From contig CAYZEJ010000002.1 of NCBI GenBank assembly GCA_964477545.1, positions 1-62,388 on the forward strand: a stretch of DNA of 62,388 nt, written 5' to 3'. The notes under the pieces are model-generated. The model saw nothing but the letters and a program-made list of their open reading frames with translations, did not search any database and was not told the origin of the DNA. Made by a program: the position numbers and the translations under genes. Within the stretch, counting starts at the first letter, position 1. Each line of letters begins with the position of its first letter. The DNA is from an uncultured Anaerolineaceae bacterium (GTDB lineage: Bacteria > Chloroflexota > Limnocylindria > Limnocylindrales > CSP1-4). Below are positions 18,325 to 25,114 of the stretch, piece after piece.

Positions 18325-18889
18325 AAGCGGCCAGGGCGGACTCCGTGTCGATGTCGGGGTTGGTGCCGGGCACGTCGATGTAGCGCACGAGGTCGGGTCG
18401 CGCGGCGAAGAGCTGGGACATCCCCTGGTCGCCGGTCAACTCTTGAGCCATGGGCCAGGCCGCGCGCCCCAGCAGGACCGGATTCCCGGGGCGTCCATCA
18501 GCGTAACGCGGCACCACGATCGGACTCTCGTCATCGCGGGATGCGCCGGTGATCACGCGAACGTTCTCAAGCGTTAGGAACGGCTGGTCACCGAGCAGCA
18601 CGAGTGCACCATCGACGTCGCCGCCGAGCGCATCCAGCCCCGCCGCGACTGAGCTCGAGATTCCCCGCCCGGGATCCTCGTTTCGGATGCGGATCTCGTT
18701 TCGCCACGAGAGGGCGGTCTGGATCGCATCGGCGTCCTCGCCGAGCACGACCACCACCGGATCGAGCTCAGCCTGCGCCGCCAGATCGAGGACGTACTGG
18801 AGCATCGGCCGTGCGCTGATCTCGGCCAACATCTTGCCGCCGCCGAACCGGGTTCCGCGGCCCGCGGCCAGAACGATCGCCGCGATCAC
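18305..18889 (-). CDS. mocA: MobA/MocA-like nucleotidyltransferase (molybdenum cofactor cytidylyltransferase type)
   Basis: Track ORF with N-terminal IVLAAGRGTRFGGGKML. GTGA overlap with the xdhC stop. Confidence 0.8.
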   Translation of the reverse strand: MIAAIVLAAGRGTRFGGGKMLAEISARPMLQYVLDLAAQAELDPVVVVLGEDADAIQTALSWRNEIRIRNEDPGRGISSSVAAGLDALGGDVDGALVLLGDQPFLTLENVRVITGASRDDESPIVVPRYADGRPGNPVLLGRAAWPMAQELTGDQGMSQLFAARPDLVRYIDVPGTNPDIDTESALAAFSRGAG

Positions 18890-19917
18890 CGCTTGCTGAG
18901 TGGCCCGGCGCTGGCTCCGTTGCGCTCGGCGACGATCTCGGCCAGGATCGCCAGGGCCATCTCACCGGGCTCGTGGCCGCCGAGATCGAGCCCGATGGGT
19001 CCATGCAGCCGATCCAGGTCCGCCTCGGTCAGGCCGTCATCGAGCAGTCGTTGGCGCCGGCCGGCCTGCGTTCGGCGGCTGCCCATCGCACCGATGTAGC
19101 GACAGCCGGCGCGCATCGCGGCCACGATCGCCGGCTCGTCGAGCTTGGGATCGTGGCTCATCACCACGACCGCGTCGTCGGTGGAGAGGCCGAGCTTCAG
19201 GGCCACCTCGTCGGGCCAGCCGACCAATATGTCGTCGGCGTCCGGAAAGCGGTCGTGCGACGCGAAGGCCGCCCGAGCGTCTGCCACACAGGTGCGGTAC
19301 CCGAGCTCGCGCGCCATGCGCACCAGTGGGATCGCAGCTTGAACCGCGCCAAAGATCACGATCCGCGGAGGCGGGGTAAACGTCTGGATGAAGAACTGTT
19401 CCTGGTCGAGCGTGACGGTGCCCGATCGACCTGCGGCGACCAGGGACGCTGCGGCTGCATACAAGGCGCCGTCTATGGCGACTGGCTCGGCCATGGGCGA
19501 CGTGACGATTGAGTGTGGCCTGCCATCCCCAGCTGGCGCGTCGGCCGGCAGAGGGATCGCGATCGCGGTCCCGGACGCGGCGCGGGCCGCGGCCTCGACC
19601 TCTGGCCGCAGGACGGGCTCGATGAGCACATCGATCGTGCTGCCGCAGGCCAGCCCAACGCCCCATGCCTGCTCGTCACTTATGCCGAACCGGACCAGCC
19701 GAACGCAGCCATCGCGGCGTGCGCGGGCAATCTCCTCGGCCGCGGCACCCTCGACACAGCCGCCGCTGACCGACCCTGCAACGGAGCCATCGTCCGCAAC
19801 GAGGAGGGTGGCGCCTTCTGGTCGGGGACCATTCCCGAAGACTCGGATCAGGACCGCGCGGCCGAATTCACGTCCTTCGGAGCGCCAGGCATCGATCGTG
19901 GGAAGCAACTCCCTCAT
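18886..19917 (-). CDS. xdhC: XdhC/CoxI family molybdoenzyme maturation protein
   Basis: Track ORF with an XdhC_CoxI N-domain (VSGGCVEGA) and a Rossmann-like C-domain (IVIFGAVQAAIPL). Confidence 0.85.
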   Translation of the reverse strand: MRELLPTIDAWRSEGREFGRAVLIRVFGNGPRPEGATLLVADDGSVAGSVSGGCVEGAAAEEIARARRDGCVRLVRFGISDEQAWGVGLACGSTIDVLIEPVLRPEVEAAARAASGTAIAIPLPADAPAGDGRPHSIVTSPMAEPVAIDGALYAAAASLVAAGRSGTVTLDQEQFFIQTFTPPPRIVIFGAVQAAIPLVRMARELGYRTCVADARAAFASHDRFPDADDILVGWPDEVALKLGLSTDDAVVVMSHDPKLDEPAIVAAMRAGCRYIGAMGSRRTQAGRRQRLLDDGLTEADLDRLHGPIGLDLGGHEPGEMALAILAEIVAERNGASAGPLSKR

Positions 19918-19942
19918 GGCTCGATCGTACAGGGCAAAAGGG

Positions 19943-19976
19943 AGCGGCCCCCGAGCCGGTCATCTCAGGGGCCGCT
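19943..19976 (-). terminator. Hairpin + T-run on the minus strand: terminator of the S8 gene and/or attenuator in the xdhC leader
   Basis: 9-bp stem agcggcccc / ggggccgct with a 16-nt loop. On the minus strand it is followed by cccttttg, which ends about 18 nt before the xdhC ATG. Confidence 0.45.
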
Positions 19977-20086
19977 TCACTGCGCGACCGGAACCCGTCC
20001 TTACCGGTCGCGTATGTGGTTACTGGCTGCTCCCCCCCGCGGAGGGAGCGGGCTGCTTTAACGCGTGAGCAGCCAGCTTTGATTTG

Positions 20087-21904
20087 CTACTCCTGGTACT
20101 CCGGGCAGAAGGGCGTCCTCAGGTACTTGTAAGAGGTGTCGTTGCGGACGGCCCGGTTGGCGTCGATCCGGCCATACCCAAAGCACTTGTCGTAGCCCTT
20201 CTTGCCGATGTCGATGGCCGTCCTGATGAGCTTGCTGGTCACCTTGTCCGGTGCCCAGGACCAGCCGCCGTTGGCGGTGCGGCGCCCGTACTGGCTGATG
20301 ATCAGCGCGGTGACGCCAGTCGTGTGCGGCGAGGCCATCGAAGTGCCCTGAATGCATCCGTAGGTGTTTCCGGGCAGCGTCGACAGCACGTTATCAAGAC
20401 AGTTGCCGGTGGTGCCGTTTCCGCCCGGAGCAGAAACATCGGCCCAACCTGCGCCCCAGCTGGAGTACCCGGCCTTCTCGCTGTTGGGCCCAAGGGCCAC
20501 GGTCCCGATGACGCCGGCTGCCTGTGCGGGGACGGTCTTGCACTTGGTGCCGCCCGGAGGGTTGGCAAGGTTCGTGTCCGAGTTGCCGAGCGCGGCGACC
20601 AGGCTGACGCCCTCGCCGCGAGCGTAGGCGAGCGCTCGCTCGACCGCCGCGCGATAGGCGCGCTGTGTGGGGTGGCTCTGGCACTTGAACTCGGTTGACG
20701 CCTGGAAGTCGTCGTCGTCGACGTAGAAGCTCATGTTGATGGCGTCGAGGTTGAGATCGCCCGCGTACGTAATGCCCTCGACCGCGTCGCTCACGTAGCA
20801 ATGGCCGTCGCCGTCGCAGACCTTGATCGGGATCAGCGTGACGTTCGGTGCCACTCCGGCGACGCCGATTCCGTTACGCCGCGCCGCCACGATGCCGGCC
20901 ACGTGCGTGCCGTGGAAGTTGTTGTCAACGCACGCGAGAGGGCTGCCGATGCCGGGACCCTGGAACGTGAAGTCGGCACCGCGCTGGCAGTCCACGTTCG
21001 ACCTGCCGTTAAGAACAAAGTCCTGGTGGTTGCCGTCGATGCCCGTGTCGACGATGCCGACCTGGACGGCGGGGCGGCCGAGCTGGCGCGCGTGCGCCTG
21101 CCGCGTTCGGATCTGCTGCATGCTCCACTGCTGGGGCTCGAGCGGGTCGGTCGCGGTCGACGACGTGCCGCCATTGGGAACGACGACCACCTGCCCATTG
21201 AACATGTCGACGCCGAAGTCCTTGCCAACCTCGGCCACGAGCGCGTACTTGCGCAGCGTCGCGGCAAACGTCGAGTTCCTCGACTCGACGATCATCACGC
21301 CGATTTGGCGCGTCAGGTCGGCCGTTATCGTGCCGCCGGCGATGCTGACGATGTAGAGCGCGTAGTCGCGGGCCAGGGCGTAGTTCTTGTCGAGCGCGTA
21401 CGCGTCGAGAAGGGCGTAGTTCGCTCCCAGCGCATAACCAACTGCGTTGTCCGCGAGCGCGTAGCTCCCATCGAGGGCATAGCCAGCCGATGCCTCGGCG
21501 AGCGCGTAGCCCGAGCCCAGCGCGTAGTCGGTATCCAGCGCATAACCCGACCTCAGCGCGTATTCGCCGAACTGGCGGTAGTTGCCGTTCTGGTCGAATT
21601 GATCCGTCAGCGCGTACTGGTCGAGAAGGGCGTACGTCCGGCCCAGCGCGTAGAGGGCGTAGTCCGCGCCCAACGCATAGGTGCCGTCGAGCGCGTAGTC
21701 GGACGCCTCGCCGACGAGCGCGTAGCCCTTGCCAAGTGCGTAGCTGCCATCGAGGGCGTAGCCACCCTTCAAAACGACGACGTAACGCTGGTTGAATCCC
21801 TCAACGGCCAGCGCGGCCGTGGGAAGAAGGCTTGCGAGGAGCACGAGGGCGCCGACAGTCGACAGGGCAAACCTCGTACGCAAAGCGGACCGGCTATGCG
21901 TCAT
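20087..21904 (-). CDS. Secreted subtilisin-like serine protease (peptidase S8) with a repeat-expanded propeptide
   Basis: Track ORF 20087..21952 trimmed to Met17, which has GGAGG upstream. Signal peptide present. Catalytic motifs VGIVDTGID, HGTHVAGIV and GTSMASPHTTG. Confidence 0.85.
   Translation of the reverse strand: MTHSRSALRTRFALSTVGALVLLASLLPTAALAVEGFNQRYVVVLKGGYALDGSYALGKGYALVGEASDYALDGTYALGADYALYALGRTYALLDQYALTDQFDQNGNYRQFGEYALRSGYALDTDYALGSGYALAEASAGYALDGSYALADNAVGYALGANYALLDAYALDKNYALARDYALYIVSIAGGTITADLTRQIGVMIVESRNSTFAATLRKYALVAEVGKDFGVDMFNGQVVVVPNGGTSSTATDPLEPQQWSMQQIRTRQAHARQLGRPAVQVGIVDTGIDGNHQDFVLNGRSNVDCQRGADFTFQGPGIGSPLACVDNNFHGTHVAGIVAARRNGIGVAGVAPNVTLIPIKVCDGDGHCYVSDAVEGITYAGDLNLDAINMSFYVDDDDFQASTEFKCQSHPTQRAYRAAVERALAYARGEGVSLVAALGNSDTNLANPPGGTKCKTVPAQAAGVIGTVALGPNSEKAGYSSWGAGWADVSAPGGNGTTGNCLDNVLSTLPGNTYGCIQGTSMASPHTTGVTALIISQYGRRTANGGWSWAPDKVTSKLIRTAIDIGKKGYDKCFGYGRIDANRAVRNDTSYKYLRTPFCPEYQE
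21353..21766 (-). repeat. In-frame coding repeat: 20 tandem short modules ending in Tyr-Ala-Leu inside the S8 propeptide
   Basis: Residues 63-200 of the track ORF read GGYAL DGSYAL GKGYAL VGEASDYAL DGTYAL GADYAL YAL GRTYAL LDQYAL ... DKNYAL ARDYAL. Visible in the + strand as recurring cgcgta/gcgtag. Confidence 0.85.
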
Positions 21905-21940
21905 TCGGACGGGACCTCCAAAGGAGCACGACACCACGTG

Positions 21941-22016
21941 TAGTGGTTCCACTATACGACGGGAGAGGCACCACGGGCAAGGGTGTCATATTTCAGAATC
22001 ATGACAATTCAGAATC
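21941..22016. promoter_or_regulatory. Candidate promoter/operator region of the S8 gene: 14-bp palindrome plus two 9-bp direct repeats in locally AT-rich DNA
   Basis: tagtgg-tt-ccacta at 21941-21954, 37-50 nt upstream of ATG 21904. ttcagaatc occurs at 21992-22000 and 22008-22016. Lies between the trmB-like gene and the protease gene. Confidence 0.3.
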
Positions 22017-22087
22017 GGCGCATTACCTGAACGGTACCTTGACTGCCCCCTGCGACACAACCTCGACCCTGGGACGCCCCTGGAGCG

Positions 22088-22918
22088 TTAGGCGGTCGCA
22101 GCCTTTCGGGCGACCAGCAGCTCGTGTGCCTGGTCGAAGGTCAGCCCCGTCTCCCAGATGGCGTTGAACGCGGTCTTCAGGACCTTGGCCAGGGACTTGT
22201 GCTCGACCACGACGATGGTCAGGTCCGAGCTCCCGGCCACTGGATCTTGCATGCCGAACATCACGATGGTCTCGTCGATGATGACCAGCTTCAAGGGCAG
22301 CTCCGGCACGAAACGCGCGTCCTCGCCGGCCTCGACGAAGCGCTGCACACCGCGCATCACGGCCGGCTCGTCGAAGACCGAGAACTCGTACAGCGACCGC
22401 GCCTCGTGCGTCTCGATCACCTCGAGACCCTCGATGTTCTCCTGTGGCGGCGTCGCGTAGGGCGGCTTCGTGAAGACCAGGATCTCTTTCTTGACCGCGC
22501 TCTGGAGCTCGGCGAAGCGCTCGTTGATCGCGCGCCGGTCGCGCAGGACCTCGATGTATTCGAGCGGGTCGGTATGCGCCTGCCCGGCTTCGAACGCTGG
22601 CTTCAGGTCCGTGACCATGCCGCGCGCATCGCGCTCCATGCGCGACAGCTCGTCGCGATGCGTGGCGAGCAACTGGTCGATTGCAAGCTCCGGCGCCGTC
22701 GCCGCGTACTTGACCACGTTGCCCGGCCGCGAAACGGCGAGTCCCTTCTGGACGAGGCTGCCGAGCACGTCGTAGATGCGCTGGCGCGGCAGGCCCGATT
22801 GGCGCGCGACCTGCGCGGCCGTGAAGGAATCGCGCCTGATGAGAGTCAGATAGGCCTTCGCCTCGTAGCTGGTCAGGCCGAGTCGAGTCAGCTGCGCGAC
22901 AAGTTCACCGTTTTCCAC
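22088..22918 (-). CDS. TrmB family transcriptional regulator
   Basis: Track ORF whose N-terminal wHTH ([48 protein letters not shown]) is characteristic of TrmB. Confidence 0.85.
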
Positions 22919-23059
22919 GTTTTAACTATAGCGTCACTACCCACTGGTGGTGGTGGCACTTTGGCACTAAAGCCTGCCGCTTTGAGATGGGATCGGTCCC
23001 CGAGACCTATCACTGGGCGCAGTGGCGCGGCTCCTCGGAGGCGCCTGTACGATCGAAAC

Positions 23060-25114
23060 ATGGTCAAGGCAGAGCCGGCGCACACGAATCGACTCGCCCA
23101 GGAGACGAGCCCCTACCTCCTCCAGCACGCACACAACCCGGTCGACTGGTACCCCTGGGGCCCTGAGGCGCTGGCCCGGGCAAAAGAGGAGGACCGGCCG
23201 ATCTTCCTTTCGATCGGCTACGCCGCATGCCACTGGTGCCACGTGATGGAGCGCGAATCGTTCGAGACGGACGAGACGGCTGCTCTCCTCAATGAGAGTT
23301 TCGTGGCGATCAAGGTGGACCGCGAGGAGCGCCCTGACCTCGACGCGATCTATATGGACGCGGTCCAGCAGATGACCGGGCAGGGCGGCTGGCCCATGAG
23401 CGTCTTTCTGACGCCGGACGGCAAACCCTTTTACGGCGGCACCTACTTCCCCGACCAGCCGCGCCACGGACTGCCCTCATTCAATGACGTGCTGCGCGGA
23501 GTCGCCGAGGCCTGGCGCGAGCGGCGGAACGAAGTCGAGCAGGCCGGCGCACAGATTGCCGGCTCGATCGCTCGGCAGGTGGCCTCAGCACCGGCGGCCG
23601 ATGGCGGCGGGCAGGGCGCAAGAGCGCAGGGCTGGATGCTCGACGCCGCTCTCGTGGCACTGGAGCACGAGTTCGACTCACGTAACGGCGGCTGGGGCGG
23701 AGCGCCCAAGTTCCCTCAGCCGATGACGATCGAGTTCCTGCTGCGGATGCATGTCAGCACCAAGGATCCGCGGCCGCTGGCCATGGCGCGCCGGAGTCTC
23801 GACGCGATGGCCGCGGGAGGCATCTATGACCACCTCGGCGGCGGGTTCGCGCGCTATGCCACCGACTCGGTCTGGCTCGTGCCGCACTTCGAGAAGATGC
23901 TCTACGACAACGCCCAACTGGCCCGTGTCTATCTCCACGCCTGGCAGGTCACGTCTGACGCCCGCTATCGCGAAGTCGTCGAAGAAACGCTGCACTTCGT
24001 ACGGCGCGAACTGCGCACCGCGGACGGAGGCTTCGCTTCTTCGCTCGATGCCGACACGGATGGCGTGGAAGGGGCGACCTACGTCTGGTCCAAGGCCGAG
24101 ATCGACGCCGTGCTGGGCGAAGACGCTGCGGTCTTCGACGCCGCCTACGGGATCACGGAGAACGGCAACTGGGAGGGGCAGAACATCCTGACCCGGGCTG
24201 CGGACGCGACGGACGACGAGCCGCGACTCCCTGACATTCGCCGGAGGCTGCTGGAATTCAGGAACACCCGTCCACAGCCGGGGCGGGACGACAAGATCCT
24301 GACCGCCTGGAACGGCTTGATGATCGCTTCGTTCGCCGAGGCAGGCGCGGCGATGGGCAGGGCCGATTGGACAGAGACGGCCGAGCATGCCGCGGACCTC
24401 CTACTCCGCGAGGCGCGCGACTCACAGGGTCGGCTGAGCCGCTCGTGGAAGGACGGCCGAGCCTTGCATTCGGGCGTTCTGGAGGACTACGCGAACCTCG
24501 CGGAAGGGTTGCTGGCACTGTACTCGGCCACGTTTGCAGAGCGCTGGTTCGTGGCCGCGCGCGCGCTGGCGGACCAGATCCTCGCCCATTTCGCGGATCC
24601 TGCCGGCGGCTTTTTCGACACGGCCGACGATCACGAGACGCTCATCACGCGACCAAAGAGCCTTCAGGACAACGCAATGCCATCAGGCAACGCGATGGCG
24701 GTCACGGTGCTGCTCAAGTTGGCCGCGCTGACGGGCGGGGGCCGTTACTCGGACGCTGCCGAACGGGCACTGGCCCAGGTGACGTCATACGTGCACCGGT
24801 ACCCGACCGCTTTCGGCCAGTGGCTAGGCGCACTCACGTTTTCACTCGGGGACGTGACGGAGGTCGCGATCGTGGGCGATCCGGCCGCGGACGACACTCG
24901 TGCCCTGCTCGACGTCGTGCGCCGCGAATACCGGCCGTTCAGCGTGGTAGCCCTGGCTGGGGGGAGGCGGGCGGGCGAACAGGCGGTAAAACTCCTGCAC
25001 GACCGCGAAAAGCGTGACGGAAAGGCGACCGCCTACGTCTGCCGCGGCTTCGCCTGCCGCGCGCCGACCACCGAGCCCGCCGAACTGGCGGCGCAGTTAG
25101 CATCCCCGCTGTGA
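23060..25114 (+). CDS. Thioredoxin-domain protein of the YyaL/DUF255 family (N-terminal Trx-like domain + six-hairpin glycosidase-like domain)
   Basis: Track ORF 22124..25114 trimmed to ATG 23060; the upstream part is antisense to trm[26 protein letters not shown] and [17 protein letters not shown] are hallmark DUF255 segments. Confidence 0.85.

Follow-up and report, generated by a model that had tools for sequence, protein, structure and literature searches.

The closest described relatives of the protein considered here are the pro-subtilisins, namely pro-subtilisin E (3WHI) and pro-Tk-subtilisin (2E1P/2Z2Z), which show the same order of signal peptide, β-α-β-β-α-β pro-domain and subtilase with a D/H/S triad, and which were its best structural matches, with template modelling (TM) scores of 0.72–0.82 normalised to the target. 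The subtilase propeptide is a textbook intramolecular chaperone and inhibitor; it must be degraded for the activation of pro-subtilisin, and its degradation is rate-limiting for activation. The protein that we compare with these systems is a secreted S8 (subtilisin-family) pre-pro-protease of an uncultured Anaerolineaceae bacterium, encoded in a stretch of 62,388 nucleotides (contig CAYZEJ010000002.1 of assembly GCA_964477545.1), which is called here the window. The pro-domain of pro-subtilisins is ~70–80 aa long and contains no repeat array between strand β1 and helix α1, whereas in the window protease an array of 126 aa, composed of Tyr-Ala-Leu (YAL) tripeptides and short spacers, is inserted at that point. 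The window family also differs from pro-subtilisins in that the motif recurs at further places of the pro-domain and of the linker to the mature enzyme, and in that its pro-domain gives no Pfam I9 match (no hit to the profile PF05922 at E ≤ 1).

A second precedent concerns precursors that are trimmed in steps of two residues. The pro-part of promelittin is dipeptide-phased, and dipeptidyl peptidase IV trims it step by step (Kreil et al. 1980, as cited in PMC2114619), and the Glu-Ala repeats of yeast α-factor, with Ste13, are a dipeptidyl aminopeptidase case (Julius 1983, as cited in PMC2114619). The likeness to the protease array is that the only strict rule is a register in exopeptidase steps, with free spacers and with activation by trimming. 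The period is nevertheless 2 in promelittin and α-factor, with Ala or Pro at every second residue, and 3 in the YAL array, with a whole tripeptide in every second slot. Moreover, the YAL array, unlike those precursors, is embedded in the folded inhibitor domain of a protease, and it is known here from sequence alone.

The array occupies positions 21356–21760 of the window (− strand), as delimited by translation, AlphaFold2 (AF2) modelling and alignment of orthologues. It contains 20 YAL copies in residues 65–199 of a 621-aa open reading frame (ORF), which correspond to residues 49–183 of the 605-aa protein; the first YAL codon begins at 21760, the final array YAL finishes at 21356, and the spacers are 0, 3, 6 or 15 aa long. 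The 19 spacings between successive copies are, in order, 6, 6, 9, 6, 6, 3, 6, 6, 18, 6, 6, 6, 9, 6, 9, 6, 6, 6 and 6 aa, i.e. fourteen of 6, three of 9, one of 3 and one of 18, each of them a multiple of 3. A 21st YAL (aa 220–222; 21239–21247, − strand), placed by translation and by comparison with relatives, occurs 39 aa (13 triplets) past the last array copy. The whole protein thus contains 21 YAL, to be compared with 0.1–0.4 expected from its amino-acid composition. The 20 tandem copies in the propeptide of an S8 protease had been the object of the original prediction, made by a model from the DNA letters, and they are real, with correct coordinates (21353–21766, a range that includes GG before the 20 modules and Y after them). 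The spacers, however, had been described as mostly 5–6 aa with a few of 3, 9 and 19 aa, which does not agree with the spacings just given and misses the multiple-of-3 rule. DGSYALGKGYAL is given as an example of a synthetic peptide sequence.

The codons of the YAL copies vary synonymously (TAC/TAT, GCG/GCC/GCA and CTC/CTG/CTT/TTG), the self-identity of the array DNA at an 18-nt offset is 0.48 by autocorrelation, and Tandem Repeats Finder returned only two short, weak arrays. The synonymous variation and the self-identity value indicate that conservation acts on the peptide and that the array is not the product of recent slippage. A DNA-level origin was considered and rejected, as neither Tandem Repeats Finder nor autocorrelation revealed recent slippage or homogenisation. 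Conservation was estimated on 33 orthologues with 59–80% identity, all of them gap-free over the array of the window protein. The YAL positions were 98% identical, compared with 51% for the array spacers, 41% for the pro/mature linker, 48% for the signal peptide, 70% for the remainder of the I9 domain and 74% for the catalytic domain; the degenerate units found (YRQ, TVL and QAL) retain the length. The earlier claim of selection on the tripeptide rather than recent slippage is therefore in good agreement with codon usage, DNA self-identity and conservation in orthologues.

Scans of Pfam, NCBIfam and PHROGs gave no match to the array, the protein yielding only the S8 domain; comparison with PDB sequences gave only chance matches (E > 1), and nothing relevant was found in the literature on YAL repeats, Limnocylindria subtilases or subtilase propeptides bearing repeats. 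Thus Pfam, NCBIfam, PDB and the literature searched offer no counterpart to the array of YA[L/V] motifs (YA followed by Leu or Val), to its occurrence across the pro-region or to its register of three residues, in line with the earlier statement that no named repeat family was recognised. When the array alone was used as a phmmer query against 1.84 billion representatives, only N-termini of proteases of the same family and unrelated viral fibre-like proteins with YA[L/V/I] hexads were found, the latter being the only non-protease matches.

Two queries, the window protein and a YAV-type relative, served for the family searches; the best 120 matches of each were taken, and most of them had arrays. 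More than 200 cluster representatives carry arrays of 3–30 YA[L/V] copies. Long YAL arrays (14–30 copies) have source names of Chloroflexota or Candidatus Limnocylindria, the YAV clade (6–14 copies) has Gaiellaceae or Actinomycetota names, and short YAL arrays (3–10 copies) are intermediate. The family spans two abundant, uncultured lineages of soil and freshwater, Limnocylindria and Gaiellaceae-type Actinomycetota. The nearest repeat-less relatives show a plain β1-loop-α1 connection, e.g. RYIVVFGGTSTADGGFLFDRDAALALVATAGG. The idea that the array is an inhibitor tunable by copy number, also part of the original prediction, finds support in the differences between clades and none within the clade of the window protein, where the 33 orthologues show no array indel. 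A search of genome contigs was of little use for taxonomic distribution, as it returned a single locus, L009 (2789–4436), from a Gaiellaceae metagenome-assembled genome (CAVRRU010000012.1). In this locus the gene of a YAV-type protease is frameshifted after a readable array and I9 part, the frameshifts being apparently either an assembly consensus error or the mark of a pseudogene.

Concerning the register, successive YA[L/V] motifs in the pro-region of the first 120 sequences are spaced by multiples of 3 in 2074 of 2075 cases, with family tallies of 1506 spacings of 6, 190 of 9 and 150 of 3. In 200 members, with 84 spacing architectures, the segment from β1 to GG has 29 different lengths (30–183 aa), 26 of which are 0 mod 3; the three odd lengths belong to seven sequences, six repeat-less relatives (31 or 32 aa) and an N-terminally truncated one. 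The GG-to-QW segment of the same proteins has 21 lengths, distributed 7/7/7 over the residue classes. In addition, 94 phylogenetically independent sister pairs were considered. The length of the array loop differs in 33 of them, and in 32 of these 33 by a multiple of 3 aa (binomial p = 1.2e-14), the differences recorded being 3 aa (five times), 6 aa (14 times), 9 aa (twice), 12 aa, 15 aa (three times), 18 aa, 24 aa and 45 aa. The rest of the I9 domain plus the linker differs in 35 pairs, with multiples of 3 in only seven (Fisher p = 1.7e-11), and other variable parts of the protein (Asp–His and Asn–Ser) also shift by 1–2 aa. Judging from these alignments, the register unit is 3, not 6. A strict register in step units, of the kind described for promelittin, was thus found at 3 aa (32/33 changes and 2074/2075 spacings). 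The pattern goes beyond what mutation alone would give, and therefore out-of-register indels are selected against once the motif is present. To our knowledge, no fold or mechanism in the maturation of bacterial proteases requires a single three-residue register.

These data bear also on the view, favoured only by the repetitive appearance of the sequence, that the array arose by neutral expansion of a low-complexity stretch or through faulty assembly. Two independent contigs (L001 and L002) carry the gene, called from the same ATG, and encode the identical 605-aa protein, so that there is no assembly artefact, a point on which the original prediction had advised a check in homologues; the array is present in the more than 200 cluster representatives mentioned above. 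The 98% conservation of a motif with synonymous codon variation and the register statistics (p about 1e-14) are likewise contrary to neutrality. Independent assemblies, family size, motif conservation and register taken together exclude this explanation, to which practically no credit can be given.

The motif is not confined to the array. In some relatives YA[L/V] directly follows canonical signal-peptidase sites (ASA/GNG-YAV-NYLVV, VSA/GES-YAL-RYLVV and AQG/YAL-DGQ-RYIVV, with a slash at the site). It occurs also in α2, 6 aa ahead of the next site; in the α2-β4 loop of nearly all the array-bearing members, 39 aa past the array; and in the linker, just before GGGGPE...DPLE..QW, at +18, +21 or +24 depending on the clade. 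These outside copies share the register of the array except in two lineages, in which the I9 domain carries an indel of 1 or 2 aa; in one of these off-register lineages three of four members are devoid of the α2-β4 motif. The nature of the third residue is also shared by the different sites. Proteins with YAV arrays have YAV at the α2-β4 site in 70 of the 72 sequences resolved by pattern search, and the further copies inspected in sequences of this clade were also YAV; relatives with YAL arrays have YAL, one sequence (P0098) mixes both, and repeat-less relatives have SIF, SGL, SVL or SPL at that site. The occurrence of the motif in helices, loops, termini and linkers, together with the concerted change of Leu to Val, points to a recognition motif with a common reader rather than to a structural repeat unit.

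Two other observations are related to the register. Among the Pro residues of the pro-region, 36 are in the middle slot of the triplets, nine in the Y slot and none in the L slot. Pro at P2 is classic for subtilases, and since these enzymes accept Pro at that position the bias is what cleavage behind the L slot would lead one to expect, although Pro in the middle slot also fits position i+1 of a turn. On the other hand, the best signal-peptidase site, chosen by a crude −3/−1 rule, is in register with the motifs in 147 of 193 distinct N-termini, versus one third by chance; the distance from this site to β1 is 6 or 9 aa, and two independent 3-aa insertions were seen.

On this basis, it is tentatively proposed, with a rough probability of 0.4, that YA[L/V] is a processing motif through which the I9 inhibitor propeptide is taken apart, perhaps in steps of three residues. 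The tandem (xxx-YA[L/V]) units would be a family-specific insertion in the β1-α1 loop of an I9-type inhibitory pro-domain, and YA[L/V] would be a short linear motif recognised by a reader, and not a unit from which a fold is built. The most economical reader would be the cognate protease, which is the probable one because it is the only component always inherited with the motif. The motif would have increased in number in the only pro-domain loop able to accept insertions, and the processing sites would serve to dismantle the inhibitory propeptide after secretion, thereby setting the time of enzyme activation and releasing many short YAL-containing peptides. The count of the register seems to begin at the N-terminus that signal peptidase generates. 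As motifs inside and outside the array keep one register, a register-sensitive processing can be inferred, for which stepwise tripeptide removal would be the simplest form and the only mechanism we can name that would cover both locations of the motif.

A more explicit version seems distinctly unlikely, though it can be formulated. The pro-region would be a register-locked 'tripeptide tape', along which a tripeptidyl-type activity, either of the subtilase itself or of a partner, would advance by three residues, beginning either at the N-terminus produced by signal peptidase or wherever a cut has been made behind a YAL. The array would be a countable activation fuse, and each enzyme molecule would yield 20–30 free Tyr-Ala-Leu (Tyr-Ala-Val in Gaiellaceae-type proteins), a diffusible signal or product that might be sensed via the adjacent TrmB-family regulator. 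If stepwise tripeptide removal is true, it would be a new mode of timing for zymogen activation, a new route by which one defined tripeptide is made in many copies, and the first case of 'ticketing' by three residues instead of the two known from venom and pheromone precursors. If the register reflects instead a fold, this fold would be new and invisible to AF2. The register rule provides a simple search criterion for similar cassettes elsewhere.

With respect to an exopeptidase within the S8 family, tripeptidyl peptidase II (TPPII; 3LXU) has the subtilase fold and removes tripeptides from free N-termini. The window protease is 27% identical to it over the core. TPPII has no I9 propeptide, and its ~200-aa insertion between Asp and His is absent in the window family, in which D286 and H334 are separated by 48 aa (48–56 aa across the family). 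In a BLASTP comparison with Drosophila TPPII (3LXU), the invariant D396 lies opposite the Glu of NMSYGE, which we take to be the N-terminus anchor of TPPII, and Tyr370 lies opposite the second Glu; when the protein is aligned to subtilisin BPN′ with HMMER, D396 is displaced by one position. The alignment of D396 with TPPII can be considered a lead, not evidence, and an exopeptidase activity of the window family is pure conjecture.

Several observations weigh against the proposal of a processing motif. The anatomy, the conservation, the register rule, the L/V covariation and the absence of other partner genes are observed and solid, while everything said on cleavage, including the enzyme, its direction and the role of the products, is deduced from sequences. 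Strand β1 of the folded pro-domain is N-terminal to the array, and it would block a simple exopeptidase working from N- to C-terminus until the domain opens. The motifs outside the array are often at homologous sites, so that the in-register events there amount to only some 6–8 independent ones. No column of the catalytic domain, including the segments of the S1 pocket, tracks the L/V switch; a residue of the specificity pocket that would follow it was sought and not found, and the best-discriminating columns follow phylogeny. No YAL is found at the predicted primary junction between pro-part and mature enzyme in the window protein. A quarter of the signal-peptidase sites given by the crude predictor are out of register, and the nine Pro residues of the Y slot would be at P1′ of the preceding step. 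Finally, some features are suggestive of structure in the array. Tyr and Leu make up 32% of it, and in a charge-hydropathy plot its value (H 0.49 versus a boundary of 0.445) is on the side of 'compact' rather than intrinsically disordered proteins; several spacers are conserved position by position (DGS, GxG, FGQ, LDA and ARD); and two spacers of the YAV clade (e.g. P0101, P0104 and P0194) hold a conserved Cys each in their middle slot, at a distance of 12 aa (YAV-LCN-YAV-xxG-YAV-GCN), a pair which is lacking in the YAL arrays of Limnocylindria and which could staple a YAV-turn-YAV hairpin. Cys pair, conserved spacers and compact-type composition together hint at some structure.

The structural context of the array was studied in two AF2 runs, one with the window protein and the 105-sequence family alignment, and another with the homologue P0073, which has a more regular array, and 41 sequences. 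In the first, the pro-domain elements were β1 39–45, α1 175–188, β2 191–197, β3 203–208, α2 213–218 and β4 223–228 (605-aa numbering), with predicted local distance difference test (pLDDT) values of ~90, except for β1 (~70); the subtilase domain was also modelled with confidence. The β-α-β-β-α-β fold of I9 is thus found N-terminal to the subtilase. The best Foldseek match in PDB was unprocessed pro-subtilisin E (3WHI, TM 0.82 normalised to target), followed by pro-Tk-subtilisin, and the 407–449 aligned columns mean that the pro-domain is included in the match. The array is, by this modelling, an insertion in the β1-α1 loop of an I9-like pro-domain. The flanks of the array had been attributed from the letters to an I9-type pro-domain, which agrees with these results; the repeats, however, do not take the place of the first propeptide helix, as was also thought, because α1 is retained in the model, where the last two YAL units (aa 175–183) and YIVSI form it, and the array precedes it.

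By contrast with its surroundings, the array had pLDDT ~30 in the window protein (residues 48–173) and 20–25 in P0073, and no confident fold was obtained for it in either run (20–37 overall). The solenoid-like fold that had been suggested is accordingly without support. As the insertion begins and ends in one compact domain, the ends of the array must lie close in space, which argues against a rod-like parallel fibre or a long solenoid. A hairpin with a central turn was considered and rejected, as the irregular middle segment corresponds to ordinary YAL units in close orthologues. The hexapeptide profile PF00132, the RTX β-roll and other repeat families gave no Pfam or NCBIfam profile match, and no PDB match was found at E < 1. 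As regards the structure prediction proposed earlier as a check, the outcome is divided, with no fold for the array in AF2 and, nonetheless, 98% conservation of YAL across the 33 orthologues.

It is doubtful, though to be taken seriously, that AF2 missed a folded repeat module forming a structural extension of the chaperone and inhibitor domain. Such a module might consist of YAL β-strands with three-residue turns, in a hairpin meander or sandwich, or of a hexad/nonad 'β-layer' assembly, and it might need oligomerisation or Ca2+. The array is as hydrophobic in composition as the catalytic domain and its length is frozen, with zero indels in the 33 orthologues; some spacers are position-specific, with turn-like slots (D/G, then any residue including Pro, then G/N/D/S), and the Cys pair of the YAV clade could staple a YAV-xxG-YAV hairpin. 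All this would be natural in a fold, as would spacings of 6 and 9 residues, which are the hallmark of hexad/nonad α/β coiled coils (PMC4786415), and the SSSYAL-type hexads of unrelated viral fibre-like proteins, where 436 of 459 spacings are multiples of 3. Against a fold stand the pLDDT values of both runs, solenoids being normally well modelled by AF2, and the lack of matches to PDB sequences, to Hexapep or to any other repeat family of Pfam. A copy number ranging from 3 to 30 is also unfavourable, and the zero spacer of YALYAL beside 6-aa spacers does not fit one regular repeat geometry. Above all, a static fold leaves unexplained the in-register motifs at the N-terminus, α2 and linker that covary in L/V with the array.

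The comparison with the β-layers of α/β coiled coils, which occur in hexad and nonad spacing (Hartmann et al. 2016, PMC4786415), deserves some detail. The likeness lies in the 6/9 spacing and in a three-residue unit with a hydrophobic residue first and Ala second. However, the canonical β-layer motif is [aliphatic]-A-T-K-x-[DE], while the array has Y-A-[L/V] followed by D/G-rich spacers. β-Layer fibres are parallel homotrimers with distant ends, which clashes with an insertion in a monomeric I9 fold whose ends meet, and the spacing of 3 in YALYAL is outside the scheme. Hexad/nonad spacing was found in the arrays and the consensus was not, and a parallel homotrimer would not suit a loop insertion. 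As to the virion or fibre-like proteins (P0126–P0159), they contain long runs of (S/T)(A/S)S-YA(L/V/I) hexads or of KGD-YAL-KxDL, and they gave no match to Pfam repeat families or to PDB. By their sequences they look like natural hexad/nonad α/β coiled coils; hexad-spaced natural examples were reported as not found by Hartmann et al. 2016 (PMC4786415).

The failure to obtain a fold would also suit a different function, in which the array is a Tyr/Leu 'sticker-spacer' tether that holds or concentrates the zymogen at the cell envelope or on organic particles, or through self-association, for as long as the propeptide is present, with the motif itself left uncleaved. Tyr-rich stickers alternate indeed with Gly/Asp/Ser spacers, and the protein is secreted with no other domain for anchoring. 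Yet regions of this kind tolerate indels of any length, in disagreement with the 32 of 33 changes that are multiples of 3, and a tether explains neither the lone motifs at the N-terminus, the α2-β4 loop and the linker nor the concerted L/V switch. We regard it as quite improbable.

Another alternative concerns the products rather than the protein. The array could be a multi-core precursor similar to those of ribosomally synthesised and post-translationally modified peptides (RiPPs), with YAL as an aromatic-X-aliphatic core that would be cross-linked and with the fused protease excising the products. Like the multi-core precursors of ustiloxin (YAIG) and of plant BURP-domain peptides, which present tandem short aromatic cores and, in one case, fusion to a processing domain, the family has tandem conserved three-residue cores (3–30 YA[L/V]) with variable spacers and a fused protease. 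An aromatic-small-aliphatic motif resembles known cross-linked cores (ustiloxin YAIG, fused cores of BURP-domain proteins and three-residue cyclophanes). Unlike in RiPP precursors, the array has no flanking Kex2-type dibasic site, no oxidase domain and no neighbouring gene for a maturase. Examination of the Pfam content of the neighbours in the window and in four homologous loci (L003, L004/L005, L006 and L008) showed none of the maturase classes radical S-adenosylmethionine (SAM)/SPASM, P450, DUF3328/UstYa, BURP or YcaO, nor any other maturase near the protease. The neighbours are instead a DsbH-like thioredoxin, TrmB, XdhC/MobA and genes of purine catabolism. Besides, the signal peptide is of Sec type, the would-be precursor is part of a folded pro-domain, motifs within the secondary structure of I9 would be poor cores, and the register rule is left unexplained. 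The multi-core precursor of the original prediction has thus no linked maturase in these loci and is very improbable as a RiPP, even less expected than the tether, while a release of unmodified YAL-containing peptides during maturation would still be conceivable and would accord with the proposed processing motif.

The gene itself was delimited as follows. The 621-codon ORF, on the − strand at 20087–21952, was identified as an S8 protease by the ORF list and its translation. Its start codon is the ATG at 21904 rather than the GTG at 21952, because a GGAGG lies 11–15 nt upstream of the ATG and because start and leader are kept in homologous loci. The complete coding sequence is therefore 20087–21904 (605 aa plus stop; protein P0001). 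Peptidase_S8 (PF00082, E = 1.6e-45, residues 296–594 of the 621-aa ORF) was the only Pfam domain found, and the NCBIfam scan of the protease gave only subtilase matches, all of them sub-threshold. The assignment as an S8 protease with a signal peptide, already made from the letters, rests thus on the Pfam match and on an N-terminal helix in the AF2 model (residues 7–26). Apart from the array, the enzyme is an ordinary secreted subtilase whose propeptide is of I9 type. The signal peptide, aa 1–33, is MTHSRSALRTRFALSTVGALVLLASLLPTAALA (21806–21904), with a predicted cleavage ALA/VEG, which was the best site here by the crude −3/−1 rule. It is followed by six N-terminal residues and β1 (VEGFNQ RYVVVLKGG, aa 34–48; 21761–21805; AF2 strand 39–45), which make up 15 aa, i.e. 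five triplets, ahead of the first YAL; in the family alignment Y41, V43, V44 and G47 of this region are nearly invariant. After the array, the remaining I9-like pro-domain (aa 184–228; 21221–21355) comprises the end of α1, β2, β3, α2 and β4, on the grounds of pLDDT ~90 and of the Foldseek pro-subtilisins. The pro/mature linker, DFGVDMFNGQVVVVPNGGTSSTATDPLEPQQ (aa 229–259; 21128–21220), varies in length among homologues without a triplet rule. All these features are on the − strand.

The catalytic subtilase domain (aa 260–605; 20090–21127, − strand) was defined by Pfam and by the family alignment, and it aligns with subtilisin BPN′. The Asp-His-Ser triad and the oxyanion Asn are present in the order D286, H334, N441 and S522, as corresponds to S8 members, and they are invariant in 105 sequences. 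Also invariant in this domain are the Cys residues C306, C325, C363, C369, C408, C455, C574 and C600. A family-invariant, Asp-rich 15-aa insertion, VDDDDFQASTEFKCQSHPT (aa 395–413; 20684–20740), follows the substrate-binding strand equivalent to Ser125-Gly127, and from its sequence it may serve to bind Ca2+, to cover the S3/S4 end of the cleft as a lid, or to hold the N-terminus of the substrate.

Directly upstream of the protease and in the same orientation there is a gene for a TrmB-family regulator (PF01978 plus DUF7436; 22088–22918, − strand). Of the four homologous loci read, three (L003, L004/L005 and L008) have conserved synteny, the upstream genes being compared where upstream sequence exists. 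The gene order in the window (18886–25114), L003, L004 and L008 comprises DsbH-like thioredoxin (DUF255), TrmB, protease, XdhC/MobA-like and a purine-degradation cluster of uricase, OHCU-decarboxylase and transthyretin-like genes. The short-array locus L006 has different neighbours, and in L003 TrmB and the protease are separated by a MacB-type ABC/FtsX transporter. The TrmB regulator was the sole conserved partner gene found in the loci examined.

The TrmB gene and the palindromic DNA upstream of the protease, both noticed in the original prediction, are real and conserved in homologous loci. An inverted repeat ACCAC-N6-GTGGT, on the + strand CACCACGTGTAGTGGT (21932–21947), lies 28–43 nt upstream of the start, within the spurious GTG-extended part of the ORF. 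An ACCAC-N5/6-GTGGT(GTC) element was present 25–43 nt upstream of the start in the five loci compared (window, L003, L004, L006 and L008), which include a short-array relative. From its sequence and position, it is a possible operator, to which the adjacent TrmB-family regulator might bind, or else a possible hairpin of the 5′ leader. At 21984–22016, the intergenic region between TrmB and the protease contains another palindrome, TGTCATATTTC/GAATCATGACA, and two copies of a direct repeat, TTCAGAATC; these elements are partly conserved in L008 (TTCTGAAATGTGCCAC).

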